Origin: Deinococcales bacterium
GTDB taxonomy: Bacteria; Deinococcota; Deinococci; Deinococcales; JAAFIG01
Length of the DNA stretch: 64,000 nt
Reading direction: 5' to 3'
NCBI GenBank assembly: GCA_043778225.1
Contig: JAYWGM010000080.1
Coordinates: 13,910-77,909, forward strand
The notes beneath the pieces are model-generated. The model was not told the origin of the DNA, searched no databases, and saw nothing but the letters and a program-made list of their open reading frames with translations. This document shows positions 253 through 47,912 of the stretch, one piece after another. The stretch's first letter is position 1. The number at the start of each line of letters is the position of its first letter. The translations under genes and the position numbers were made by a program.

Positions 253-387
253 TTAACCGCCAGAGCCACCACCAGGGTCATCCCCAGCCATCAACACAGG
301 GGTAGGGTTGGAGATGACTGTATTTGGAACTGCCACCACCGCTAAGAGGAACACCGCGACCAGAACTTGAACGACACGCTTGAACAT
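253..387 (-). CDS. Small secreted peptide precursor, 44 aa: MFKRVVQVLVAVFLLAVVAVPNTVISNPTPVLMAGDDPGGGSGG
   Basis: AAGGAG RBS 5-6 nt upstream of ATG; basic N-region plus hydrophobic core (signal peptide); below the ORF-track cutoff. Confidence 0.8.
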   Translation of the reverse strand: MFKRVVQVLVAVFLLAVVAVPNTVISNPTPVLMAGDDPGGGSGG

Positions 388-11797: not shown

Positions 11798-14700
11798 TTA
11801 TTTTAGCACAGCTTTTGTCGTGGGTTTACGCCCAGCCACCAATGTTTTGGTCAGTGCCGTAAAACCAATTTCATTGCCCGTCGCCAAAAGTTTTGCCTGT
11901 TCTGCCCATGTAGACTGGCTTGGCGCAAGTCGGATTTTAGCAGACTCGAGGGCGGCTTTTAAGGCTTGGGCATCGGTCGCCGCTAAACTCGAGAAGGTCG
12001 TGATGCCCGAGGCAACCAAGGCAGCCGCGATTTTTGGACCTATTCCTTCGATTCGGGCTAAATCGTCCACATCAGCTATTTTTGCTTTGGCTGATTTAGC
12101 AATACCCTTAGCTTTAGCAACAGTCGGTTTTGTGCTGACTTTGGTTTTTGTAGTAACCAGAACCGATTTTCTTGACTTTGAGGGCTGGGTTACGACCACT
12201 TTAGATTTCACTGTTTTGACTGGTTTTTCTATCTTTTCTTTGCTTGGCTTTGTTGTTTCAAAGTCAAGGCAATACCCGTTTTGAATCACCATTTTCTCGG
12301 TTTTCTCGAGTAATTTTACTTGGCTTGAGCCTCGGCTGGCGCTTTCTACAAAAGCAGCAAAGGCTTCGGCATGAACATAGCGTTTGTCCTCGAAGGTATT
12401 TAAGCCAATTGCCATAACCGCATTGACATCTGCCAGTAAAATTTTGAAAATTGCGGCACTGGTTTTAGCCGTCTCGAGGGCTTCGTGGGTGGTTACCAAA
12501 AGTAAGACTCGAGCCGCGCTCCGACCTGCGTTACCATTGCTGGTGTCACGAAAGGCTCGAGTCAGTTGACGCGCCAGCAGCCATTCATCGGCTATTTTTT
12601 GTGGCGTTTGCTCGGTCAGCATGGCTACCCGCCTGATGGTTATCAATGCCATCTGTTCAAGGGCTGCTTCAGAAGTGCTGCACACCAATTGCTCGAGGTC
12701 AGCCCGAAGCCCAACCGCAAACATTGCCCCCGCCAAATCCTTTTTGCTGTGGGCTTCAATGCCATCGGCTAAAGACTTGGCTTTGGCTTCAAGCTCGCCA
12801 TACAAAACTGCACTTGGCTCGAGCAGCGCCCGAGCGGTACTTGAATTGATCAAGTCATTCCACGGGGTCAGGATTTTCTCGAGGTAGAGTTCCTGAACGG
12901 CTGTTTTGATGTCTTCAACACCGCGCCCACCGAGCATTTGCTCGAGACGAGCATACCGCCCATCCGAATCGGTAATTTCGTACCAGCCAAGCAGCACCGC
13001 CCGACCATACGCCCCAAGTTGCACAGAAAAACCATCTTGATTGATTCTGGCACTATTTTTAATATACTCGAGACCCGAAACGTTATCGCGGTAAATTGCA
13101 AAGTGGTTACTTTGGCTCGAGAGTTGCAGCGCTTCGGCAATGCCCGATTGGCGTTCGCTGTACAAACACGAATTGATCGTGACATTAGCAAAATGAGTCG
13201 AGTTGTTGTAAAAGACCAATGCCCGTTCGCTACCAGCCCGATTTGAAAACGCAAAGACATGATCGTGGGTCACTTCAAACAGCGCAAAATGTTCGACTTC
13301 GGCAAATAAATAACGCTTTTTTAAGAGCGGGAAAATCTGAGTTTCATGGTGTGCCATAAAGCCCAAATCTGGTTTTTCGTCGTAGTACGCCCGTTGGTAC
13401 TCCATGCCGTATTTTTCGGTGTAGCCCTCGACTTGCCCATGCCCAAGCATTGGCAGCCCCGGTAAGGTGGCGCAAAGCGTCATGATGCCAAAATATTTAT
13501 CGGTTTTACCAAATTGCTCGACGGCAGTTTTTTCGTCGGGGTTACTTAAAAAATTAACATAGCGCTTCAAAATTTCTGGCTCAAACTCGAGTGTATTTTT
13601 AATCACCTCGCGGTACTCAGCATTGCGTTCATCGCGCAGCATGACCATAAACGCCGAATTATAGACACGGTGCATCCCCAAGGTGCGGACAAAATAGCCC
13701 TCCATCATCCAGAAGGCTTCTGCCAAAAGCAAGGTATCTGGCACTTCGGTAGCAGCACGGTCTACCACTTCACGCCAGAATTCGTTGGGCATGATGCGAT
13801 CAAATTCTTCTCGAGTCATGCCGTACTCGCTTCTCGAGGCGATGCCTTCGCCCGAACCCGGCTCTGGAAACCAAAGGCGTTTAATGTGGCGCTTGGCGAG
13901 GGTCATGGCAGCATCAAAGCGAATAATCGGGAATTGCCGCGCCACCCGAAAAATTGTTTGAATCACGGCTTCTCGAGCGGCTGGATTGATATAATCAAGT
14001 TGTGCTGTATCGTTCCAAGGCAGGCTCGTACCGTCGTTGCCGTGGTAAATAATTCGAGTCTCACCATTCTGACCAACGTACTTAAAGGTCACGGCAGCAT
14101 CGGATTTATCGTAATAATGATCCTCGAGAAAAACCTGCATTCGGCTATCGGCGCTTAAATTCTGCGAGGTGTAGCTATAACTCGGGTACGGCGAAGTTGG
14201 GCGCTGCAAAAACCAGTCAGGGTGTTCTGCCATCCATTTGCTGTCAATGCCGGTATGATTGGGAACCATATCCGAAGCCATGCGAATCCCAACCCGCCAA
14301 GCTCGAGTTTTCAGGTTCTCGAGGGCTGGCTCACCGCCAAGCGCGACCGCAATGCTGTAATCCCAAAGGCTATAGGCACTGGCAACCGCATCTGGGTTGC
14401 CCATGCGGTGTTTAATTTCTTTGCTGGCTTGGCTGCGTTCCCACAAACCAATCAGCCATAGCCCAGTAATCCCCCAACGCGCCATGTTCTCGAGTTCGGC
14501 ATCTGGGATTTGGTCTAACGTGCGAATTTGGCGGTTGTACTGCTTACTCAGTTGGTCAAGCCAGACAAAAGCATTTTTTGCGATTAAGACCACCCGAGGC
14601 ATCCAATTCTGGTCGAGCGTAAAGGCTTCGGGTTCGTCCTCGAGCATCTGGCGTGAAACTGTACGAATTTGCGCTTCGGCTTTGAATTCTGCACCACCAC

Positions 14701-15478
14701 CATCAAAGTCCCGCACATTCTGCGCCACAAAAAAACGGGCTTCTTCGGCAAATAAATCTAAGCCACCACGCAATTTAAGTTCTAAAGTCGCAAAACGCCC
14801 GGCTGTACCACGGCGCTCAAAGACCCCACCAAAACGCCCCATCAACGACCGCAATTGCGTCTCGAGTGAATCTGGGTGCTGCATCGCGGGCAAGCGCAAG
14901 GCTTTCCAAAGGCTTGTGCCACCAAAACTGGGTTGACCCTCCAAAAAAGACTCAAGGCTCGAGATAACACTGCGGTAAGCACTCGAAGAAGCAATCACTT
15001 CATCCTCGAACAAATCTTTATAGGGCATAAAAGCGGGGTTGTTGTTCTCGAGCCAGAGCAGCAGCATTTCCTCGAGCAGAATTTCTTTGTTGGCAGGCAA
15101 AGCCAAGTAATCCTCGAGTGTTTGCTTATTTTGGTAAACCGCCGTCGGTGGGAATTCTTGGGCGAAGCGCGTCAGCGTTGCATCCAAACGTTCGCCGTAC
15201 TGCGCTCCCAATGCCTCAAGCGCCTCTTGCCAAAGCCTTGGCGCATGGTTCTCGCGGTACTCGAGCAGCAGACCATGCAGCACCTCGTCTATCAAGCCCA
15301 TGGCGTTGATGTCGCCGGCTCTGGCATTGCGCCCCGGTGTGACCGCATTGAGGGCGGCAGCAAAACGCCGCGCCGCCGCGAAGTCGGCAAAAATCACCCG
15401 TCCAGAGGTGGTGAACAGCGCCGCATCAAAATTATGGCGGTCACGGACGGAGCGCAGGATATGTAGCTCGAGATTCAT
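11798..15478 (-). CDS. Large GH13 alpha-amylase family protein with Lys-rich linker and C-terminal HhH domain
   Basis: DMVPNH, IRFDAAM, LLAEAFW, NPDE catalytic motifs; DDLARIEGIGPKIA HhH. Confidence 0.85.
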   Translation of the reverse strand: MNLELHILRSVRDRHNFDAALFTTSGRVIFADFAAARRFAAALNAVTPGRNARAGDINAMGLIDEVLHGLLLEYRENHAPRLWQEALEALGAQYGERLDATLTRFAQEFPPTAVYQNKQTLEDYLALPANKEILLEEMLLLWLENNNPAFMPYKDLFEDEVIASSSAYRSVISSLESFLEGQPSFGGTSLWKALRLPAMQHPDSLETQLRSLMGRFGGVFERRGTAGRFATLELKLRGGLDLFAEEARFFVAQNVRDFDGGGAEFKAEAQIRTVSRQMLEDEPEAFTLDQNWMPRVVLIAKNAFVWLDQLSKQYNRQIRTLDQIPDAELENMARWGITGLWLIGLWERSQASKEIKHRMGNPDAVASAYSLWDYSIAVALGGEPALENLKTRAWRVGIRMASDMVPNHTGIDSKWMAEHPDWFLQRPTSPYPSYSYTSQNLSADSRMQVFLEDHYYDKSDAAVTFKYVGQNGETRIIYHGNDGTSLPWNDTAQLDYINPAAREAVIQTIFRVARQFPIIRFDAAMTLAKRHIKRLWFPEPGSGEGIASRSEYGMTREEFDRIMPNEFWREVVDRAATEVPDTLLLAEAFWMMEGYFVRTLGMHRVYNSAFMVMLRDERNAEYREVIKNTLEFEPEILKRYVNFLSNPDEKTAVEQFGKTDKYFGIMTLCATLPGLPMLGHGQVEGYTEKYGMEYQRAYYDEKPDLGFMAHHETQIFPLLKKRYLFAEVEHFALFEVTHDHVFAFSNRAGSERALVFYNNSTHFANVTINSCLYSERQSGIAEALQLSSQSNHFAIYRDNVSGLEYIKNSARINQDGFSVQLGAYGRAVLLGWYEITDSDGRYARLEQMLGGRGVEDIKTAVQELYLEKILTPWNDLINSSTARALLEPSAVLYGELEAKAKSLADGIEAHSKKDLAGAMFAVGLRADLEQLVCSTSEAALEQMALITIRRVAMLTEQTPQKIADEWLLARQLTRAFRDTSNGNAGRSAARVLLLVTTHEALETAKTSAAIFKILLADVNAVMAIGLNTFEDKRYVHAEAFAAFVESASRGSSQVKLLEKTEKMVIQNGYCLDFETTKPSKEKIEKPVKTVKSKVVVTQPSKSRKSVLVTTKTKVSTKPTVAKAKGIAKSAKAKIADVDDLARIEGIGPKIAAALVASGITTFSSLAATDAQALKAALESAKIRLAPSQSTWAEQAKLLATGNEIGFTALTKTLVAGRKPTTKAVLK

Positions 15479-15628
15479 GAGAGCAGGATACCACAGTGCT
15501 TAAACGCGTTTGAAACCGTTACGTTTTTGGCGTACAAAAGCCAAGTATCAAAAAAGTATAGCTTGGCACGCCACACCAAAGCTCATCACAAGCTCGAGTA
15601 TCGTATGCCAATATCATTTGAATAAATT

Positions 15629-15733
15629 TTACTTGCCACCAGCAACACTAGGAAGACCATTAGCCAGTGCAAATTGCGTGACAGCCATTGCCAAGACAAT
15701 CAAACGAAAACCAATTAAACGTACTTTTTTCAT
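15629..15733 (-). CDS. Small secreted peptide precursor, 34 aa: MKKVRLIGFRLIVLAMAVTQFALA-NGLPSVAGGK
   Basis: GGAGG RBS about 5 nt upstream of ATG 15733; MKK plus hydrophobic core plus A-x-A cleavage site; divergent from a TPR-BTAD regulator. Confidence 0.75.
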   Translation of the reverse strand: MKKVRLIGFRLIVLAMAVTQFALANGLPSVAGGK

Positions 15734-15823
15734 ACAAACCTCCAGAGTTTGTGAAGCTCCGTTAGTTTGTGCTAACCTCAGTGAGAAGCTGTCTGTCCAA
15801 ATCAACAAAAACGGTGAAAGACT

Positions 15824-17761
15824 GTGATTTACGAACCCAATCCGATCCTCGAGTGCTACCTCAGTGACCAATTTGACCTTGGCATCGAGACTTTTGATTT
15901 GCTCGAGACCGCAACACCGCTCGACTTACTTTGGGTTGGGCAGTGCCATTTTGGGCTTGACCACCATGTCGAAGCCCTCCATTATTTTTATCAAGCCAGC
16001 GCTCGAGGATATGTCGAGGGAACAATTTTTGCCTCAACTGTTTTGCGCTTTATTGGCAGCCACCAATTAGCCAATCAACTGCTGGCACAGGTCATGCACA
16101 AAGACCTTTCGGTATTTGGTCAGGCGGCTTGGTACAGAGAAAATGGTCTGCAATTGGTCGCAATGCGCCATTTTGCCTTGGCAATTCCAGAACTTGAACA
16201 GGCTTGGCGAATTGCCAGTGCCGACCCCATAGGGCAGCGTTTACTGGCTCGCTATTCGCAAAGTCTGGCTTTAGCACTGCTCGAGATTGGACGCGACCAA
16301 AACGCCTTGAAATACCTCAACTTGGCAATTAATCCAAAAAAACCGAATCCCGATTTACTTGTACTACGAAGTTCTGCTCTTGCTTACAGTGGTGAATTTA
16401 CCAAAGCCAAAGCAGACCTCGAGCAATTTCGTCAACTGGTTTCAGGTTCTCAGTCCACTTGGACTCATTTGGTTCATGGTTTTATCGCACGCTGTCAAGG
16501 TTTAATCGAACAAGCTACAACCATCTACCTTGAAACCGCCTCGAGTGCCAAAACCCTAGGCGAATGGGAAACCGAATTCTATGCCGAGGTCGCCTTGTGT
16601 GCCTTACTCACCGAACAAGGCAGTTACCACGTTGCCCAAGCACACCTGTCCAGAGCGCATGGGGTTATTCCTTTGCCGCGTGAAGATTTTGCGGTTCACG
16701 AAGCCATGATTGCCATGCGTCATGCTGCCCTACAAACATCCCAAGGCAATAAAGAGGCAATCAACACGCTCCAGCACGTCGCCCTCATCCTTGGACAGCG
16801 AAAACTCGAGCGCGAACTTGGCATTGCCGAACTGCACTTGTCCGAAGCCTATTTTTATAACAACCAGCAACAAGCAGGATTATCAGCTTTGGCTCGAGCC
16901 ATTCATTTGCGTCATGCGGTTGGCAGCCAAGCCTATTTTGCCCTTGAATTACGCGCCTTGCCTCATGTTTTCCAGACCGTTTGCGGCTTGAGAATTCGAG
17001 GCACAGATGTTTTCTACCAAGATTGGCAAACCCTAGAACGCCAAAGCCCACACGAAGTACAACTGACGACCCTAGGAGATTATTCGATTCGGCTCAATGG
17101 ACAAGTCGTTAAACTTGATTCTGGCACAGCCAAAGCAGTCGAATTTCTGGCGTACTTACTCGAGGCTGGCGAATCGCGTTTAGACCAGATGATTAGCGAA
17201 ATTTTTGATTCTGGCTCGCACAGCACCGCCCGTAATCGTATTCATAAGTTACGTGAATCAATCGCTCGGCAAATACCCGGCTTAATTGTTCCGCATAACA
17301 AAGAACGCAATACCTATCACCTCGAGCCAGTCGGTGTGCGTTTGCGCTGGGATGTGCGCGAACTCCGCAAAGCCCTCGAACAGGGTGGTGTGACTGGAAT
17401 GCAGCGCGTACTTTCGATGTACACAGGAGCATTCTTACCGCGCAGCGAAACCCAATGGGCAGAACAGACGCGCTTTGAACTTGAATTGAGCATTACCGAA
17501 GTTGGTCTTGAAACCCTCAACGAACTCTTTAAGCTCGAGCGCTTTGATGAGTGCTTACGATTAGCCGAACGACTGGCACAGATTGCCAACATGAGTCTTG
17601 GAATTCAACTGCTGCTCTTAAAAGCCACGATTCGGGTACACGGGGCAATTGCGGCTCGAGAACGACTCTTAAAAATAGACCCCATCATCCAAAACGATTT
17701 GCGAACCCTTCCAGAATTGCAATTTGAATTTCGCAACGCAGAGCGCGAATTTTTGAATTAA
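15824..17761 (+). CDS. Regulator with N-terminal TPR repeats and C-terminal wHTH/BTAD (SARP-like) region
   Basis: Helical repeats; LTTLG...LNGQ, KAVEFLAYLLE, WDVREL, YTGAFLPRSETQWAEQTR. Confidence 0.85.
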   Translation: MIYEPNPILECYLSDQFDLGIETFDLLETATPLDLLWVGQCHFGLDHHVEALHYFYQASARGYVEGTIFASTVLRFIGSHQLANQLLAQVMHKDLSVFGQAAWYRENGLQLVAMRHFALAIPELEQAWRIASADPIGQRLLARYSQSLALALLEIGRDQNALKYLNLAINPKKPNPDLLVLRSSALAYSGEFTKAKADLEQFRQLVSGSQSTWTHLVHGFIARCQGLIEQATTIYLETASSAKTLGEWETEFYAEVALCALLTEQGSYHVAQAHLSRAHGVIPLPREDFAVHEAMIAMRHAALQTSQGNKEAINTLQHVALILGQRKLERELGIAELHLSEAYFYNNQQQAGLSALARAIHLRHAVGSQAYFALELRALPHVFQTVCGLRIRGTDVFYQDWQTLERQSPHEVQLTTLGDYSIRLNGQVVKLDSGTAKAVEFLAYLLEAGESRLDQMISEIFDSGSHSTARNRIHKLRESIARQIPGLIVPHNKERNTYHLEPVGVRLRWDVRELRKALEQGGVTGMQRVLSMYTGAFLPRSETQWAEQTRFELELSITEVGLETLNELFKLERFDECLRLAERLAQIANMSLGIQLLLLKATIRVHGAIAARERLLKIDPIIQNDLRTLPELQFEFRNAEREFLN

Positions 17762-17784: not shown

Positions 17785-18387
17785 ATGAAAATAAAAAATA
17801 TCCTTGAGCATTGGGGCATCAGTGTTGAAGAACTCAGCACCGCCATTCTCGAGAACGGCAGCTTACGTGGCATGGTTTTTGGTTATGTTGCCGAAATCAA
17901 ATTGCGTCAATTACTCGAGCAAAACCCGTTGGTCAGTTTAATTGTCAAAGACAACGACCATGACCGTACTCGAAAAGCAGATTTACGAATTCGATACCGC
18001 GATGTTGAATTTCGGCTCGAGAGTAAATCGTTGCAAACCAATTCGATTAAAAAATTACCTGACGGCACTTTTACTGGCAAAACCCAAGTGGACGGCAGTG
18101 ACCGACGCTTGGTACGCTTTGCCGATGGCTCAAGTCTCGAGACAATCTTATTATTGCCAAATCAGTTTGACGTGCTGGCGGTCAATTGTTTTGCTTTCGA
18201 GGATACGTGGTACTGGTTATTCGCTCGTAATTCAGATTTACCACGCTCGAGTTTTAAGCGTTATACCCCCGAGCAGCAGCGAGGTTTACTGGCTTCGCTG
18301 GTAGAGGTGCATAAGCCAGCCCGAGGGGTTTTTAGTGATGATTTATTTGTCTTGCTCGACCAAATGATGGCTGACGGTCACGGTTGA
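17785..18387 (+). CDS. Putative type II restriction endonuclease (PD-(D/E)xK)
   Basis: GYVAE...KAD...LESKS motif; convergent with and overlapping an MTase gene. Confidence 0.7.
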
Positions 18388-19187
18388 AGATGAACAATAC
18401 TCGAGATTTTGGTTTTAACTTTCTGGAATACCAAAAAGTAAGAATGGTTTTTTCGGGCATGAACCTGAGTTTTCAAGCGGCTAATGCTTGGGCGGTTTGG
18501 GCGCACAAGCACAAACAAATCTTTACTGTACAAACCCATTGATTCATAAGCACTGATAATTTCGACATGGGTCAGGCGTTGTTTATTAGCACTGACTTCA
18601 TCTTGGCATTTAACAATCAGCATCCCACCCATTTTCAAGACACGGTTGGCTTCACGCCCAGCTTTGATGTACATATCTATCACGGCTTCGTGCCACTTTG
18701 GCTCGCCCTGAGTTTGGGCTTGTCCACTCGAGTAACTACGCCGAAAAGCAGCGTGGCTTCCGCCCCCTGCAAGCTGTTCGACATCACGACGGTACAGTCC
18801 TTCCATATAGGGTGGGTCAAGGATAATTGCATCGAGCGAACCTGTTTGGTACGGTAAATCACGACAATCTACGCCATTTTGAATTTCGATTTGATGAACC
18901 AAGTCTCGAGTATTTTTTGCTTCAATATCCGAGAAAAACAGTTGATATTTCTGAACTGGGATTCGTTGCCAAAAGACACCTTTCCCGTAGGTCACATCAG
19001 CAATTTTACTGCCACCGGGCAAGTGCAATTCGGCGATTTCGGCAAACATTTCGGCATTCCCTGTTGTGGCTGCTGATAAAATGAGATCGCTGCTGGACTT
19101 TCCACCTTGAATCCGTTTTGAGCCTGATTTTGGTATGGTAGTCGTTACAAGCTCAGTTTGACCAAAAAGTTCGGATTGCCGATTCAT
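18378..19187 (-). CDS. Amino (m4C/m6A) DNA methyltransferase
   Basis: DVTYGKG (motif I variant) precedes the DPPY catalytic motif; [15 protein letters not shown]. Confidence 0.85.
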
Positions 19188-19660: not shown

Positions 19661-22498
19661 TTACAAAAAAGCACTTTGCCATTGCTCAAGCGGCAGTGAG
19701 TTATCCGAAATTTGCAGTTCACCCAATAAATTCTGAGTTTTTTGTTTGGTCTCTGCCGATGTATTCGGATGTTCAAAGACCGTTTGTAGAATTCGACTGG
19801 CTAAATTGGGATTGCGTTCGATATGCCATTCTCCTACAAGTTTGAACGCCTCTAAAGCTCGAGGAATAAAGTTGAGTTGCAAGGCTAAGGTCAGTGCAGC
19901 ACAAAGCGATTGCTTAACAAGATGAGCATTTGATATGGCGATGCCGAGTGCCGCCAGATTGGTCAGTACCGTAATTTCTCCTGCTTGGTCGCCTATCGTC
20001 TTACGAATCTCGAGACTGGTATTTAGGTGTTCTCGAGCAGTTTCAAACTGTTGTAGCTTTGTTGCTAAAACACCAAGATTTGAATGCAGCACAGCAATCG
20101 GACGTTGATGTCCGATTTTTTCAAAAATCTCGAGACACTGCTGGTAGGTTGTAAAAGCCGCCGAATCTTGGTTGAGGACTTCGTAAACATTGGCAATGTT
20201 ATTCAGTACCGTAGCTAGACCAGCCGTATTATTTAATCGCGTTTGAATATCCCGAGCCTGCGTGTAGTGGGCAAGGGCAACTTGGTAATTGAGTTGACGC
20301 TTGGCAACAGCCCCTAGCAGACTGGCACATTCGGCAAGATTGAGATCGAGTTCAAAGCAGTTTTGGGCTTTGGTCACCACATTTTGTGTTTCTAAATAGT
20401 CCGCTTGCTCAAAATAAATAAATCCCATCTGTAGCCACGCTCGACCCGCTTCTTCGGTTAAACCGACTTGCTCGAGTTGGTTTGCTGCCAATTCAAGATT
20501 GTTGAGGGCATTTGGATACTCGCTGACAATTCTTAAAAATAAACCACGCCAAAAATTTGTTCGCCCTTCAAGGCTCGAGCCAGACTGGGCGCTATAACGT
20601 GCCAAAGAATCGAGTGCCACAAACCCCAAGCCGCGCACGTCCCAATAATCAGCAATAAGCCTTAGGTGCTGCTCGAGAACATCGTGCTGCATTTTTGCCC
20701 AATATAAAAAGGCGACATCCAGATTGGAGCGTTCGGTGTCCATGGCTTGCAGTGTGGCTGGTTGACGAAAAGACTTTTGCCAGCCTTGACAGCGCTCCGA
20801 GAAATACGCGGCATGATACGCCTGCAAGTTTGCAAGTGTACTCGAGTGGAGCGCCGCAAATTCCCGAATCATTTCATGGCACAAAAACCGACCCTGTTCA
20901 TCCTTACGAATCAGACCTTTATTGATCAGCGCCAGTAGCGTCGGCAGTTGCGTCTGACCGACTGCCTGTAAGCCTTCAAGACTTGCGCCACCCCGAAAGA
21001 CCGACAGCGCCTCGAGTGTCTGTTTCTCGCGCAGCGTTAATTGCACCCAAGTGCTTTGCAAAACCGCTTCTAAACTCCGATGCCGCAAAGGAATATCCTG
21101 CACATCGGTCTCGAGCCAGAGTTGACTCTTTTCAAGTTCGGTAGCAATTTGTTCTAAACTTAAAACCCGTGTCCAACGGGCAGCCAATTCGATTGCCAGT
21201 GGTAAGCCCTCGAGTTTCTGGACAATCTGCGCCACCAGCCTTGGTTCTAGGTTTTGCTGGCTCAGACGCTGGGCAACTTGGACAAATAAACGCACCGCTT
21301 GGTTGGTTGGAATTTCGAGCGCACTTTTTGGGACAGGCAAACCCAGTAAATCCAGAATTGTTTCGTCGTTGACCAGAAGCCGAACTCGAGAGGTCAGCAA
21401 TACCCGTAGGTGCTGACACTCGGTCAGTAAACGCCCGAGAAAACCTCGAGCCTCGAGCAGATGTTCCATGTTGTCCAGTACAAGCAAAATGGATTTTTCT
21501 TTAGCAAAGTCAAAAACTGTTTGTTCTAAACTTTGCTGTTGCTTATTTTGCACCCCAAGGGCAGCGGCTAAGGCAGTCACGACCTGATTGGCTTGGGTCA
21601 ACGCTGTACCATCCATAAACACCGAGCCATGGACAAATTGGGGACGCAATAACCTTGCTGCCTCAAGCGCCAAGCGGGTTTTTCCACTGCCGCCAAGCCC
21701 AACAATACTGACCAAGCGATTTGCGCCCAGCAGCCAAGTTTGTAGCTGCTCGAGTTCGATTTCTCGTCCGATAATCGGTAAAAAACTTTTACTTGGCAGC
21801 ACAGGGCGACTGACAGCTTGGTCTTGTAACAAAGCAAGCGTACTCGAATCTGGTTGAATTCCCATTTCGGCTGCTAAAGCACTCGAGAATCGCCCATAAA
21901 TTTTCTCAGCTTGTCCACGTTCTTTCTGAGCCAAGTAGCAGCGCATCAGGGCTTGTACGGCTGGTTCGCACAAGGGTTCGGCAAACAGTAATTTATCGAG
22001 CCACGCAATTGCCACACCATATTCTCGAGTTGCCTCAAGTTGGCTGGTGCGTTGCAGAATCGCTTCACGCCACAAACCATGCAAATGTTCGCGTTCAAAA
22101 CCAAGCCACGCTTCGAGACCCGCCAAGGCTGGCGGCATAAAACCCTCGAGCAATGCGCCTTGATAGATTTCTAACGCCTCGAGCCACTGCTGGTTTTTGC
22201 ATAGCGTCACAAAATTTTCTACATCGGTGCTGATTAAAAAACGCGCCCGCTTGGCATCGGTCTCGAGTGCGGCTGCCCAAGGAAATTGTTTTGCCCGATG
22301 AAAAATTAAACGCAGGGCATTACGGGCTGTTTGGTCATCGTCTTCTGGGCGAAACAGACACGCCAATTCGTCTCGAGCCACCCAATCGCGGCGCAGTGCC
22401 AAGTACAACAGCAACCACGCTGGACGCGCCAATGGCAACGGCTCGAGCCGACCATGGCTAAAAACACTGGCAACGCCAAGTAGTTGCAGTTCCATCAA
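19661..22498 (-). CDS. AfsR/SARP-type BTAD-NB-ARC-TPR (STAND) transcriptional regulator
   Basis: LLLYLAL...YQGALLEG, GLGGSGKTRLA, LVLDNMEH, GLPLAIELAA, TPRs. Confidence 0.95.
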   Translation of the reverse strand: MMELQLLGVASVFSHGRLEPLPLARPAWLLLYLALRRDWVARDELACLFRPEDDDQTARNALRLIFHRAKQFPWAAALETDAKRARFLISTDVENFVTLCKNQQWLEALEIYQGALLEGFMPPALAGLEAWLGFEREHLHGLWREAILQRTSQLEATREYGVAIAWLDKLLFAEPLCEPAVQALMRCYLAQKERGQAEKIYGRFSSALAAEMGIQPDSSTLALLQDQAVSRPVLPSKSFLPIIGREIELEQLQTWLLGANRLVSIVGLGGSGKTRLALEAARLLRPQFVHGSVFMDGTALTQANQVVTALAAALGVQNKQQQSLEQTVFDFAKEKSILLVLDNMEHLLEARGFLGRLLTECQHLRVLLTSRVRLLVNDETILDLLGLPVPKSALEIPTNQAVRLFVQVAQRLSQQNLEPRLVAQIVQKLEGLPLAIELAARWTRVLSLEQIATELEKSQLWLETDVQDIPLRHRSLEAVLQSTWVQLTLREKQTLEALSVFRGGASLEGLQAVGQTQLPTLLALINKGLIRKDEQGRFLCHEMIREFAALHSSTLANLQAYHAAYFSERCQGWQKSFRQPATLQAMDTERSNLDVAFLYWAKMQHDVLEQHLRLIADYWDVRGLGFVALDSLARYSAQSGSSLEGRTNFWRGLFLRIVSEYPNALNNLELAANQLEQVGLTEEAGRAWLQMGFIYFEQADYLETQNVVTKAQNCFELDLNLAECASLLGAVAKRQLNYQVALAHYTQARDIQTRLNNTAGLATVLNNIANVYEVLNQDSAAFTTYQQCLEIFEKIGHQRPIAVLHSNLGVLATKLQQFETAREHLNTSLEIRKTIGDQAGEITVLTNLAALGIAISNAHLVKQSLCAALTLALQLNFIPRALEAFKLVGEWHIERNPNLASRILQTVFEHPNTSAETKQKTQNLLGELQISDNSLPLEQWQSAFL

Positions 22499-32457: not shown

Positions 32458-32556
32458 CCCTTTGACTTAGTTGGTCTAGGCTTTTTAACCGAAGCGTAGA
32501 CTATTTTTTTGCTTCATAATGAGTCTATACTCGGGGATACCTCGAGCGAGGCTTTT

Positions 32557-35343
32557 ATGACTCCCGCTAAAGAAATTTATAATCAAATCCGCCATGACCC
32601 ACGTTTTGAGCCAAGCGATTTTTTTGTTGGTTACGACTCGAGGTTTGATGGTCTGCGGGAAAGTACACTCGAGGGTTTTGGGCAATCTGAAATTCCTTGG
32701 CATCGGGTGCAGTACATCCGTGACTCGAGTGGAATACGCTGGGACAGACGCACCAAGCTGGACTCGATTAACCATTCTGGCGAACCCAATGCTATTCAAG
32801 GCATACAAGCTGTTGCAGCGCGTACAATCAAGAAGGAAAAAACCATGAAACCAAAAGAATTGTTAGCCCTCGGCATTCCACAAAGCGCTTTGGCTTTGAC
32901 CGCTCAACTTCTCAAAACCCATCCAGAAAAGCAAACCATGCTGACTGAATTGCGGGCTTTGGTGGCAAACCCCGAAGCCTACACTGGGCATTTTTTACCG
33001 TTGGTGGCAGAACTTTCTAAGCCAGTTGGTTTGCTGGCTCGAGACCAACCAGTACCCTACAAAATCTGGGGAACGGGCTTAGATGCTGGCTCACTCGAGC
33101 AAATGAAAAACGCTGCGCGGCTGCCGATTGCGGTGCGTGGGGCTTTAATGCCCGATGCTCACCAAGGCTACGGGCTGCCCATCGGTGGGGTGCTGGCAAC
33201 CTCTGGCGCGATTATTCCATATGCTGTTGGGGTGGATATTGCCTGCCGCATGAAATTGTCTATTTTGGATATTCCAGTTTCCAAAGCGTTTTCGCGCCAT
33301 TTTGAGGCGTTAAAACAAGCCCTTGAATCAGAAACCCGTTTTGGCATGGGGGCAGCTTTTCAGCGTCCACTCGAGCATGAAGTATTGGATGCCGACTGGG
33401 GCACCACTCGAGTCACCAAAGATGTTTTTGCCAAAGCCCGCAACCAACTCGGAACTTCGGGCAGTGGCAACCACTTTGTCGAATTTGGCGTGGTGACGCT
33501 CGCCAAGCCAGACCTTGGACTTGAGGCACAAGAATACCTCGCGCTGTTGTCGCACAGTGGTTCTCGTGGGGCTGGGGCGGCTGTGGCGAATCATTACTCC
33601 AACCTTGCTATGAAATTGCGCCCAGAATTACCAAAAGAACTCAAGCACCTTGCGTGGCTCGAGATGGAGTCTGAGGCTGGCTTAGAATACTGGGCAGCCA
33701 TGAACCTGATGGGCGAATATGCCAGTGCCAACCACGCCATGATTCACAAAAAAATCATCAAAGCCATCGGTGCAAGTGTGCTGTTTAGTCTCGAGAACCA
33801 TCATAATTTTTGTTTGCCAGGAAATTCTGTTATTCCAACGCCCTGTGGTCCAAAGCTCATGGCACAAATCAACATTGGAGATATCGTCTACACACTTTCG
33901 GAAACTGAAGGTCTAATTACAACTCGTGTCACAAATCATTGGCAATCTGGCTCAAAGCCAATTTGTACTATTCGTACCTCTAGCCGACAGCTTAAAGCAT
34001 CACCAGACCATCCAGTTTTAATAGTAATGATTCATGACGAAGTTCATCCAACTCGTTCTTGGAATAAAAAGCATCGGGGCGAACTTGTATGGAAAATGGC
34101 TGGTGAGCTTCAAGTAGGTGATGTTATTGTCTGCGCTGAACATTATTATGCAAACAATAAGTCTATAGGACTAGGACGCGCTCGTGTGATTGGAGCAATG
34201 CTTGGGGATGGCTGGGTAAGACATGAACCTACTTTACAAGGGTACACCGTTGGGTTAGCTATTGGTGATAAAAGCCACCAACATACTCACCGATATAAAC
34301 AATTACTCGAGTCAGAGTTACCATGGGCAAATTGGAGAATAAGCTCTAAAGGTGCTTTTGGTTTAACGTGTTCGTCAGTAAAAGTTTGGGGTACTCTGAA
34401 AGAATGGGGATTGCATGACTATAGCCTTAAAAAACGAATTCCGAAATATGTGTTTTCATTGCCTATTGTGGAGAAATTAGAAGTGTTGGCTGGCTATGTC
34501 GATAGTGACGGGAGTATTTCCAAAAATCCTAAAAGTCATGGGCGTATTACGTTGGCTACAACAAATCTTGACCTTCTTATAGATATGCGAGAATTAGCTA
34601 TTGGGTGCGGTTTCCAGATTACACCAATTATTTCGAGTCATATACGGAGCAATTTTGGGAATACTACTGTACATCGTTGTCGGATTGCCGCAGACAGTGC
34701 GGCACTACTTGACATATGGCACGATGAAAAGTCCAAAAACCAATATAAAAGCCAACGGCAACGTTCAAAAGGCTTACAGCCCAGCAAAATAGGGTATTTA
34801 CCTCTGCCCTCCAATTTCTTTGCCCAGCGGATTCTTAAAGTTTCTACAAGTATCCTAGAAGAGCCAGTCTATGACCTTACTGTTGAACACAATAGTCATA
34901 GTTTCATATCCGACGGTATTGTAGTTCATAATTGCTGGCTCGAGACACACACCATAGATGGCAGCCCTCGAGAAGTCTATGTTCATCGAAAAGGCGCAAC
35001 GCCTGCCGGGGCGGGTGTCCTTGGCATGATTCCCGGCAGCATGGCAACCCCTGGTTTTGTGGTGCGCGGACTTGGCAACCCCGATAGCCTGCACAGCGCC
35101 AGTCATGGGGCTGGTCGAGCCATGAGCCGCACCAAAGCCAAAGAGCAATTTAATTGGAAGATGATTCGCCCACAACTCGAGGCGGCTGGCGTAACGGTGC
35201 TGAGTGCTGGCATAGATGAGAATCCATTGGCGTATAAAAACATCGAAAGCGTGATGAGCGCCCAAACCGATTTGGTCAAAGTGATTGCCCGATTTGACCC
35301 GCGCATTGTCAAAATGGCAGACGACGGCACAAGCGAAGATTAG
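32557..35343 (+). CDS. rtcB: RNA ligase RtcB with an N-terminal MJ1316 (DUF504)-like domain and an intein
   Basis: MPDAHQGYGLPIG, VGVDIAC, GSGNHFVE, HSGSRG, HRKGAT, SHGAGR; N-terminal IRHDPRF...VGY...IPWHRV...WDR. Confidence 0.92.
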   Translation: MTPAKEIYNQIRHDPRFEPSDFFVGYDSRFDGLRESTLEGFGQSEIPWHRVQYIRDSSGIRWDRRTKLDSINHSGEPNAIQGIQAVAARTIKKEKTMKPKELLALGIPQSALALTAQLLKTHPEKQTMLTELRALVANPEAYTGHFLPLVAELSKPVGLLARDQPVPYKIWGTGLDAGSLEQMKNAARLPIAVRGALMPDAHQGYGLPIGGVLATSGAIIPYAVGVDIACRMKLSILDIPVSKAFSRHFEALKQALESETRFGMGAAFQRPLEHEVLDADWGTTRVTKDVFAKARNQLGTSGSGNHFVEFGVVTLAKPDLGLEAQEYLALLSHSGSRGAGAAVANHYSNLAMKLRPELPKELKHLAWLEMESEAGLEYWAAMNLMGEYASANHAMIHKKIIKAIGASVLFSLENHHNFCLPGNSVIPTPCGPKLMAQINIGDIVYTLSETEGLITTRVTNHWQSGSKPICTIRTSSRQLKASPDHPVLIVMIHDEVHPTRSWNKKHRGELVWKMAGELQVGDVIVCAEHYYANNKSIGLGRARVIGAMLGDGWVRHEPTLQGYTVGLAIGDKSHQHTHRYKQLLESELPWANWRISSKGAFGLTCSSVKVWGTLKEWGLHDYSLKKRIPKYVFSLPIVEKLEVLAGYVDSDGSISKNPKSHGRITLATTNLDLLIDMRELAIGCGFQITPIISSHIRSNFGNTTVHRCRIAADSAALLDIWHDEKSKNQYKSQRQRSKGLQPSKIGYLPLPSNFFAQRILKVSTSILEEPVYDLTVEHNSHSFISDGIVVHNCWLETHTIDGSPREVYVHRKGATPAGAGVLGMIPGSMATPGFVVRGLGNPDSLHSASHGAGRAMSRTKAKEQFNWKMIRPQLEAAGVTVLSAGIDENPLAYKNIESVMSAQTDLVKVIARFDPRIVKMADDGTSED
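33811..34932 (+). mobile_element. 374-aa intein with LAGLIDADG homing endonuclease
   Basis: Starts CLPGNS, contains ASPDHP, GAMLGDG and LAGYVDSDG, ends VYDLTV...VVHN with +1 Cys; AT-richer than the exteins. Confidence 0.95.
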
Positions 35344-46919: not shown

Positions 46920-47135
46920 AAGAGTAGTTTAACTCTTTTGTAGCCTCTGCTTGACTTCAATCTGGCTTTATGGGTTTTAATACGTGATTGAAGGTTGTTC
47001 AGTGCGTATTCAGTGTTTGTTCAGCACTCGAGTTTTATGGTGATATGGTGGGAGATAATAGGTCTAAAAAGGGAGAAGAATGAAACAGCACAGCACAGCA
47101 CTAGCTCGAGACAGACTTCACAACGGGAGAAAACC

Positions 47136-47680
47136 ATGCTGCCAGCAGTTCGACTGATTTGTAAATCGGCACATTTTGCTTCATATGTTCACCAAGAAAT
47201 AGCGTCCTATGGTTTGACCATAAACCCGAATGCCGAATACACCATTTTATTTTGGTCGAAGCCCTGTACGGCACAGCCGTAACTGAACTCGAGAACTCCG
47301 AGATTGACCCAACAAAAACCCTTGTGTTTACCACCAATCCATGCCCCGAATACTGGCAAGATGTGCTTGATTTACCGGTGCAAGGTTTGGTGGTGAATTC
47401 GCTCGACCAAAGCACCTGTATCACCGCCTTAAAAGCCATCTCGAGTGGCGAACTTTTTAAGCGATTGCCACCAGCAAAAGACCTTCATTTGAACCAGAGT
47501 GAACGCGAGGTTCTGAGGCTTGTGGCACGGAGTTTTAGCAATAAGGAAATTCAGGGCATCACTGGACTTGCCGATAAATACGTGCAGAACAACGTCGCCA
47601 GCCCACTCAGAAAATTACCAGAGGCGTACCCAGAATTGCGTTTCTCGAATCGTGGTTGTCTCATGCACTATTATCGTGTT
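47136..47680 (+). pseudogene. Frameshifted LuxR-C-terminal regulator (NPCPEYW type), 3' end fused to foreign DNA
   Basis: ATG 47136 with GGAGA RBS; a 5-bp duplication ATTTT-ATTTT (47244-47253) shifts the frame; HTH LNQSEREVLRLVARSFSNKEI. Confidence 0.75.
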
Positions 47681-47912
47681 TTTCTTTATGAGGTTTGCAT
47701 TCTTGAAATTTCCAATGAAGAAATTTCAGGCTGCTATACCTATGCTTTTATTTAACTTTATTCCAATATCAGGTGATATAACCGGACCTTCAAATCTAAC
47801 GATTATCTCACCAACTGGGATTGTCCTATTTGATTTCTACTTTTTGTTTCTACTCAATCTTTTTGCGATCATTCTCGCCTTTTTTCTTTCATCACAAAAG
47901 CAAAAATCTTAA
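47670..47912 (+). pseudogene. 5'-truncated small membrane protein, paralog of 48481-48762
   Basis: FMRFAFLKFP...LLNLFAIILAFFLSSQK versus CLRFVFAKKP...LLSLVAIILAYSLTSHK; AT-rich. Confidence 0.55.

Follow-up and report, generated by a model that had tools for sequence, protein, structure and literature searches.

A gene of 34 codons with the outline of a secreted peptide and a gene for a 645-residue regulator lie divergently in the genome of an uncultured bacterium of the Deinococcales. The question raised by this locus is whether the peptide serves as a signal that the regulator receives. The window, meaning the whole stretch of 64,000 nucleotides that was analyzed, holds this pair and, near its start, a second arrangement of a similar kind. 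The results presented here suggest that the pair is probably a quorum-sensing-type loop that works like the RRNPP systems, with a new receptor layout, in the diderm Deinococcota.

The propeptide gene

The peptide gene lies on the minus strand, with these elements.

15733..15629, minus strand: propeptide gene, 34 aa, from the ORF translation and two orthologs of the same length
15733-15662, minus strand: predicted Sec signal peptide, residues 1-24, from charge, hydrophobicity, the A-x-A rule and the family consensus
15661-15632, minus strand: predicted mature 10-mer NGLPSVAGGK, from the ORF and the family cleavage consensus
15743-15739, minus strand: ribosome-binding site GGAGG, 5 nt ahead of the ATG and kept in two orthologs
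15555..15577, minus strand: terminator-like hairpin 3' of the peptide gene, not above chance (1 found against a shuffled mean of 0.7)

The translation reads MKKVRLIGFRLIVLAMAVTQFALA up to the predicted cleavage point and NGLPSVAGGK beyond it, and the 34 aa of the propeptide fall inside the RRNPP range of 10-100 aa. Signal peptides were called by a heuristic devised for this analysis (basic start and charge, hydrophobic core, A-x-A), and by that rule the three features are conserved family-wide. The family cleavage consensus is A-x-A, then D/N-P and a Gly-rich tail. The ORF picked out in the earlier note, with its GGAGG, its signal-peptide shape and its tail, is borne out by orthologous ORFs of exactly 34 codons each in two relatives, whose tails read NGLPSTLGGK and IGMPSTLGGK. 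Compared with these orthologs, pS (0.58-0.65) exceeds pN (0.18-0.28). Across the family, conservation of mature positions +1 to +8 exceeds that of the hydrophobic region whichever receptor-identity bin is taken, with values of 0.73 and 0.44, respectively, in the 55-70% bin, and selection on the mature tail is evident at the level of sequence comparison. The tail motif is duplicated internally in 14 of 89 propeptides.

The regulator

The regulator is encoded on the plus strand, its GTG start 90 nt from the ATG of the peptide gene.

15824..17761, plus strand: 645-aa cytoplasmic regulator, GTG start, no signal or membrane segment
15842..17041, plus strand: helical-repeat (TPR-like) sensor domain, residues ~7-406, from AlphaFold and structural matches
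17054..17749, plus strand: C-terminal SARP domain, an OmpR-type winged helix (~411-509) and BTAD (~510-642), from AlphaFold, Foldseek and HMM

The highest 19-residue hydropathy of the protein is 1.34, and no membrane segment was seen. Homologs are ~530-660 aa long. The AlphaFold model has a mean pLDDT of 89.7. Pfam gave a weak TPR_MalT match alone (E 1.2e-4) and no BTAD match on the window regulator; on 28 aligned homologs it found TPR_2 in 18 and BTAD in 12. When the C-terminal 240 residues were folded alone, the top six Foldseek matches were AfsR and EmbR (TMq 0.64-0.67, E 7.6e-7 to 3.5e-5), so a full SARP domain is placed last in the protein; the HMM match of this region to AfsR has an E of 0.0034. 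Foldseek with the full-length model returned generic TPR scaffolds only, among the matches listed. The layout described earlier, N-terminal TPRs and a C-terminal BTAD in the reverse of the AfsR order 90 nt from the peptide gene, holds at the level of fold.

A structural search against 48,161 chains gave best matches that all lay over the repeat domain. MalT domain III, which is a sugar sensor, came top (Z 28.3, rmsd 5.0, 346 residues). A phage Rap-peptide complex (8rte; Z 25.1, rmsd 3.9, 319 residues) and NprR-NprX (4gpk; Z 24.7, rmsd 3.8, 322 residues) also matched, and AimR came next at Z 20.5, among generic TPR proteins. TPR folds match broadly in such a search, and the shared sensor fold does not by itself establish a ligand. 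Residues 7-406 are all-helical in the model and Pfam found no AAA or NB-ARC match in the regulator, which places it among proteins without a STAND ATPase. The ligand pockets of RRNPP receptors carry conserved Asn residues; a comparison of homologs found no conserved Asn in the repeat region past residue 6. A complex prediction for the repeat domain (residues 1-408) with the full 34-aa precursor gave a score of 0.02, which counts neither for nor against binding.

Peptide-regulator pairing across the family

Loci for the pairing survey were taken from match lists before their upstream regions were inspected, which gave 123 distinct homologs, each with at least 300 bp of upstream sequence. A fixed rule finds a divergent, ATG-started signal-peptide ORF no more than 400 bp away in 89 of the 123. 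Homologs generally lacking such a neighbor would have refuted the proposal of the earlier note; the opposite was found. Among the first 82 homologs, a divergent ATG-started, signal-peptide-like ORF is present in 68 and is also led by a ribosome-binding site in 59; a second, more distant batch has 21 in 41. Three of the 89 ORFs look spurious by eye, and a wider search by eye, which took in longer, more distant and downstream ORFs, adds 17, for ~103 of 123 homologs, leaving ~20 with no visible peptide. As a control, the same rule passes 36 of the 959 genes of at least 400 aa in this genome, and 4 when a ribosome-binding site is required, of which 3 are the family's own members. Control genes from outside the family number 956, of which 33 pass. 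The contention that the pattern argues against chance gains from the comparison of 68/82 homologs with 36/959 large genes. The homolog loci are related by descent and not independent. Pairing of peptide and regulator is a trait of the family.

The ORF filter is the analysts' own heuristic, and it could be argued that the small ORFs are non-functional or untranslated and that the filter itself produced the pairing. This is highly improbable: with the ribosome-binding site included, the filter lets through 59 of 82 homologs but a single one of 956 control genes, the length of the ORF is conserved with pN well below pS, and the cleavage-site consensus is shared.

This genome has two further full-length paralogs, three in all, and the signal-peptide ORF opposite each of them has a tail of its own, in line with the paralogous family of different peptide specificities proposed earlier. 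With four candidates scored per genome, 123 of the 251 Deinococcota genomes sampled gave a match to the family, spread over four of five families of the phylum, and some relatives have up to about a dozen family matches per genome. A further search returned 484 representatives at E up to 1e-30, listed without taxonomy. The peptide-receptor pair is carried on plasmids by D. gobiensis at DGO_RS18440, by D. taeanensis at LAJ19_RS14990 and by Deinococcus sp. KNUC1210 and QL22; in these four plasmid records the peptide gene is present but missing from the listed annotation. No adjacent peptide was seen at the D. ficus homolog, where a small annotated gene that adjoins it was rejected as the peptide because it does not encode a signal peptide. 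A tblastn search of 50,697 phage records gave no match, and a search of genome contigs for related loci with one Deinococcus protein returned 1 locus only.

Several subtypes of the cassette can be distinguished. One has peptide genes led by a ribosome-binding site and D/N-P-x-x-G-rich tails. Another has leaderless peptides 30-36 nt from the start of the regulator, many of them with doubled motifs such as GANDYGVL; in the Deinococcus subfamily L107-L121 the distance is 30-34 nt and the doubled motifs include GANDYGVL and GGAKDFGQ. Among the matches listed, the NDYG and DFGQ motifs found no family peptide in the small-protein data of D. deserti (three of four supplement files, one of them in part; PMC4007540) or D. 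radiodurans (six files; PMC9650054). In a third group (L021, L024 and L127-L137, family f2), the receptor is ~545 aa with a shortened BTAD, and the peptide of 33 aa ends in a G...R 7-mer and lies 340-580 nt from the receptor. At L010, L032 and L046, one receptor is accompanied by a tandem pair of peptide genes whose tails differ slightly. At L031, L035, L052, L054-L056 and C15:78203 the tail ends in C-x-x-C, which suggests a disulfide or a metal site.

The first peptide of the window belongs to a related cassette.

387..253, minus strand: module 1 peptide, in tandem, 49 bp upstream of the gene for a 552-aa protein

In module 1 (L001 558-8113) the minus strand carries, in order, the peptide, the 552-aa TPR-winged-helix regulator, WYL, Cas3, Cse1 and Cse2, the last four called from ORFs read by eye. 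The 552-aa regulator is a distant relative of the 645-aa regulator (hhalign probability 93%, 19% identity) in which most of the BTAD is missing. An upstream peptide is present in 22 of 23 loci of this family with at least 300 bp upstream, 3 of 26 loci having been dropped for short flanks, and the peptides end in DDPxxGxGGG or in a Cys-containing tail. A second family member is located on C27 of this genome. The claim that the same pattern occurs twice in the window is therefore right in kind, as a peptide with a related regulator, but not in layout, since module 1 is tandem and its distant, 552-aa regulator lacks most of the BTAD.

Covariation of peptide tails and receptors

For 54 full-length pairs, the first 10 residues of the mature peptide were scored for similarity, which was compared with the similarity of receptor segments. 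The rank correlation was 0.50 for receptor residues 70-140, 0.45 for residues 1-70, 0.44 for residues 210-280 and 0.11 for the BTAD. The partial correlation of tail and TPR given SARP was 0.41-0.52 at four dereplication levels, reached by none of 500 permutations, and that of tail and SARP given TPR was negative. A check for covariation had been proposed in the earlier note, and its outcome is that tail similarity follows the TPR region with the SARP region controlled for. The signal-peptide part gave -0.01 to 0.07 although it is nearer the receptor gene, which indicates that linkage alone is not the explanation. Within the largest clade, once the nine-member outgroup clade is left out, the pattern persists, with a partial correlation of 0.28-0.34. 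Mature tails track the first 280 residues of the receptor and not its DNA-binding half. The richness of the tails in Gly raises similarity values, the permutation tests leave shared ancestry in, and the peptides sort with receptor clades on the tree, so the covariation is support, not proof, that the tail is the ligand.

All of the coupling and covariation evidence would also fit a receptor that senses its own peptide as a report on export, periplasmic proteolysis or diffusion, and not on other cells. Deinococcota are diderm, with an S-layer in the envelope, so the peptide must cross or stay within the periplasm. A Sec-exported peptide would land there, and importers could recapture it. Self-signaling of this kind is nevertheless judged unlikely, because several paralogs with different tails per genome (three here and up to about a dozen elsewhere) and the occurrence on plasmids of named Deinococcus species favor kin-specific communication.

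Promoter geometry and candidate targets

The region between the two genes contains a candidate promoter and operator.

15764..15769, minus strand: candidate -10 box of the peptide promoter, CAAACT, whose first base departs from the canonical one; its distance of 30 nt to the ATG is that of most family members
15779..15817, plus strand: candidate SARP-type operator, consisting of CAGTGA, 9 nt past the -10 box, and a CGGTGA copy 33 bp farther on

The orthologs have CAGACT and GATAGT at the -10 position, which matches the position of the TAnnnT boxes of other members. The window locus itself has only a degenerate pair of repeats 33 bp apart, and CGGTGA overlaps the likely Shine-Dalgarno sequence of the regulator, so that its conservation may reflect that alone. 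At the family level, the autocorrelation of pooled intergenic sequences peaks at lags of 11-12, 21-23 and 32-33. A test anchored on the TAnnnT box upstream of the peptide ATG was made with 36 of 63 promoters kept after dereplication, 34 of which have the box. In 15 of these 34, the hexamer that lies 9 nt past the -10 box is repeated at multiples of 11 bp; shuffled sequences give a mean of 1.9 and at most 5, and offsets of 0-4 give 1-3. Without the anchor, the repeat test was positive for 19 of 27 family promoters and for 58 of 98 control divergent promoters, which is no clear separation; at out-of-phase lags the figures were 8 of 27 and 47 of 98.

AfsR is described as binding direct repeats that lie eight nt upstream from the -10 box (PMC11301090), and the direct repeats of SARP regulators as overlapping the -35 region at 11-bp spacing (PMC10972967). 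The repeat geometry of the family is that of SARP activators, which suggests that the receptors probably activate their own peptide genes in positive feedback. For the same reason, activation of the receptor by the peptide seems more likely than inhibition.

Promoter geometry of this kind gives control of the peptide by the regulator, not the reverse, and would also suit a peptide that is output only. A MalT-like sensor of a small molecule would then switch on a secreted peptide with an antimicrobial, envelope or metal-binding role. In favor of this, the sensor has its strongest structural match in MalT domain III, and at this locus the peptide gene is followed, on its own strand, by a gene with an alpha-amylase domain; a maltodextrin could be what is sensed, with the gene for this 1226-aa amylase-like protein a target. 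It is the sensor domain, however, with which the tails covary, rather than the DNA-binding domain, and the 7-10 mostly uncharged residues of the tails, with internal duplications, resemble pheromones. Moreover, neighboring genes vary widely over 59 loci, which leaves the amylase unsupported as a target kept across the family; in the closest ortholog its place is taken by a short-chain dehydrogenase. A purely secreted output is thus an improbable account of the cassette, and a peptide read by the regulator is the preferred one.

Scans of the genome with the operator of this paralog gave 2 and 3 matches against 3.0 and 2.0 expected from shuffles, and looser operator patterns gave no useful target for this paralog. 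The C72 paralog has three YDCTGA repeats at 11-bp spacing, and across the genome such triples occur at two sites only, with 0.0 expected. One is the peptide promoter of C72 itself; the other, at positions 46995-47026 of the window, precedes a LuxR-like gene and is followed 9 nt downstream by a TATGGT box.

47138-47755: LuxR-like gene, apparently frameshifted near 47250, with the repeats and the TATGGT box ahead of it at 46995-47041

The arrangement is kept in one of three close orthologs of the LuxR-like gene (L175). The LuxR-like gene at 47.1-47.8 kb is a candidate target of the C72 receptor on the basis of these sites.

Comparison with known systems

In the RRNPP systems of Bacillota (Rap-Phr, NprR-NprX, PlcR-PapR and AimR-AimP), as in this cassette with its predicted Sec signal peptide, a small Sec-type propeptide gene stands beside that of a cytoplasmic TPR receptor. 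The cassette resembles them in a sensor fold near those of Rap and NprR, in several paralogs with different peptides, in receptor and propeptide genes that are direct neighbors (90 nt apart here, and adjacent in 89 of 123 homologs) and in the duplication of the pheromone motif within the propeptide; Phr propeptides are described as repeating their motif internally (PMC11343458). The differences lie in the receptor and in the gene arrangement. RRNPP receptors are described with an N-terminal effector, an HTH or 3-helix bundle, and a C-terminal TPR (PMC9765709, PMC10075063), whereas the effector here is a C-terminal SARP domain. A five-point RRNPP signature includes a propeptide of 10-100 aa and a receptor of ~250-500 aa (PMC10075063), in contrast to 645 aa here. 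Here the two genes diverge, conservation in the peptide lies at the beginning of its mature tail, and the host is a member of the Deinococcota. The cassette works like RRNPP but fails two of its defining features, receptor size and domain order. According to its description, RRNPP_detector discards layouts with N-terminal TPRs (PMC10075063).

With the SARP activators AfsR, EmbR, DnrI and ActII-ORF4, the regulator shares the OmpR-type winged helix and BTAD fold (TMq ~0.65) and, at the family level, direct repeats at 11-bp spacing just upstream of the -10 box. Their SARP domain is N-terminal, whereas here it is C-terminal (~411-642 of 645), behind the repeats, and comes without an NB-ARC/ATPase or FHA domain and with a secreted peptide gene as partner. 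NosP, which is described as responding to ligands derived from precursor peptides, is the nearest precedent for a SARP ligand (PMC10972967). The repeat domain has MalT as its top match, together with a sensor-before-DNA-binding order and the weak TPR_MalT match. Unlike MalT, the regulator has no STAND ATPase, has SARP in place of the LuxR-type domain and has an obligate-looking peptide partner.

Peptide signaling through cytoplasmic receptors is described as a trait of Bacillota (PMC10075063, PMC9765709), and the quorum-sensing section of a Deinococcus review covers AHL and AI-2 systems only (PMC6300522). The literature searched gave no published description of the cassette or of deinococcal peptide signaling; subscription papers, bioRxiv supplements and one supplement of PMC4007540 could mention it. 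A term search of PMC7425212 found nothing.

Proposed mechanism and significance

Starting from the observed anatomy, coupling, folds, tail selection and promoter geometry, each biochemical step of the loop is proposed as follows. The propeptide would be exported by Sec and cut at A-x-A, as the sequence and family consensus suggest, freeing NGLPSVAGGK or a trimmed form. The peptide would build up outside the cytoplasm and be re-imported by one of many oligopeptide ABC systems of this genome. Within the cell it would bind the N-terminal helical-repeat domain, mainly at residues ~1-280, as fold and covariation suggest. Binding would switch the C-terminal SARP domain, which would bind direct repeats of 11-bp spacing just upstream of -10 boxes and there recruit RNA polymerase as AfsR does. 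One target would be the peptide gene itself, in positive feedback, with others elsewhere, and paralogs with different tails would form separate channels.

A broader reading is that Deinococcota own a multi-channel peptide language independent of Bacillota, built on a Rap/NprR-like sensor fused to a SARP activator, in which receptors boost their own peptides and drive downstream regulators. It would comprise at least four cassette types, namely divergent with a ribosome-binding site, divergent and leaderless with a doubled tail, distant with a 7-mer, and tandem with DDPxxGxGGG; the C72 paralog would probably activate the LuxR-like gene, and the tandem type precedes a CRISPR-Cas operon. Taken as a whole, this reading is possible, although it falls a little short of being probable. 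If true, it would mean that peptide quorum sensing by intracellular receptors operates in a diderm phylum.

Matched in 123 of 251 sampled genomes, the family would extend cytoplasmic-receptor peptide signaling to that phylum, and SARP activators would gain a defined peptide input. The loop is directly testable in the cultured species that carry the pair on plasmids. Sets of peptide, receptor and operator could also serve as orthogonal inducible switches.

Neighboring genes

The earlier note linked the peptides, as a speculation, to the Opp-type permeases at 36.9-39.0 kb. This link is unsupported: the genome holds 14 SBP_bac_5 peptide/nickel-binding proteins, and none of 59 neighbor genes beyond the peptide genes matches an Opp family. 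The permeases are generic, and in view of these two results they were rejected as a dedicated importer.

No single gene is conserved beyond the peptide genes in the 59 loci. Those found beyond the peptide at L094, L101, L013, L034 and L076-L081 include a DncV-like nucleotidyltransferase, Hen1 RNA repair, haem peroxidases, subtilases and PAS/GGDEF proteins. Within the window, the alpha-amylase-domain protein (11798-15478, 1226 aa) has a Lys-rich linker and a C-terminal DUF4332/HhH domain. On the other side of the cassette, positions 17785-19187 hold a convergent pair, a 200-aa protein and an N4/N6 DNA methylase, that is possibly a restriction-modification pair. A conventional AfsR-like regulator of BTAD-NB-ARC-TPR order is encoded at 19661-22498, 2 kb from the cassette. 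Further along, positions 32509-35343 encode an RtcB with an N-terminal MJ1316 domain and an intein that bears a LAGLIDADG endonuclease.
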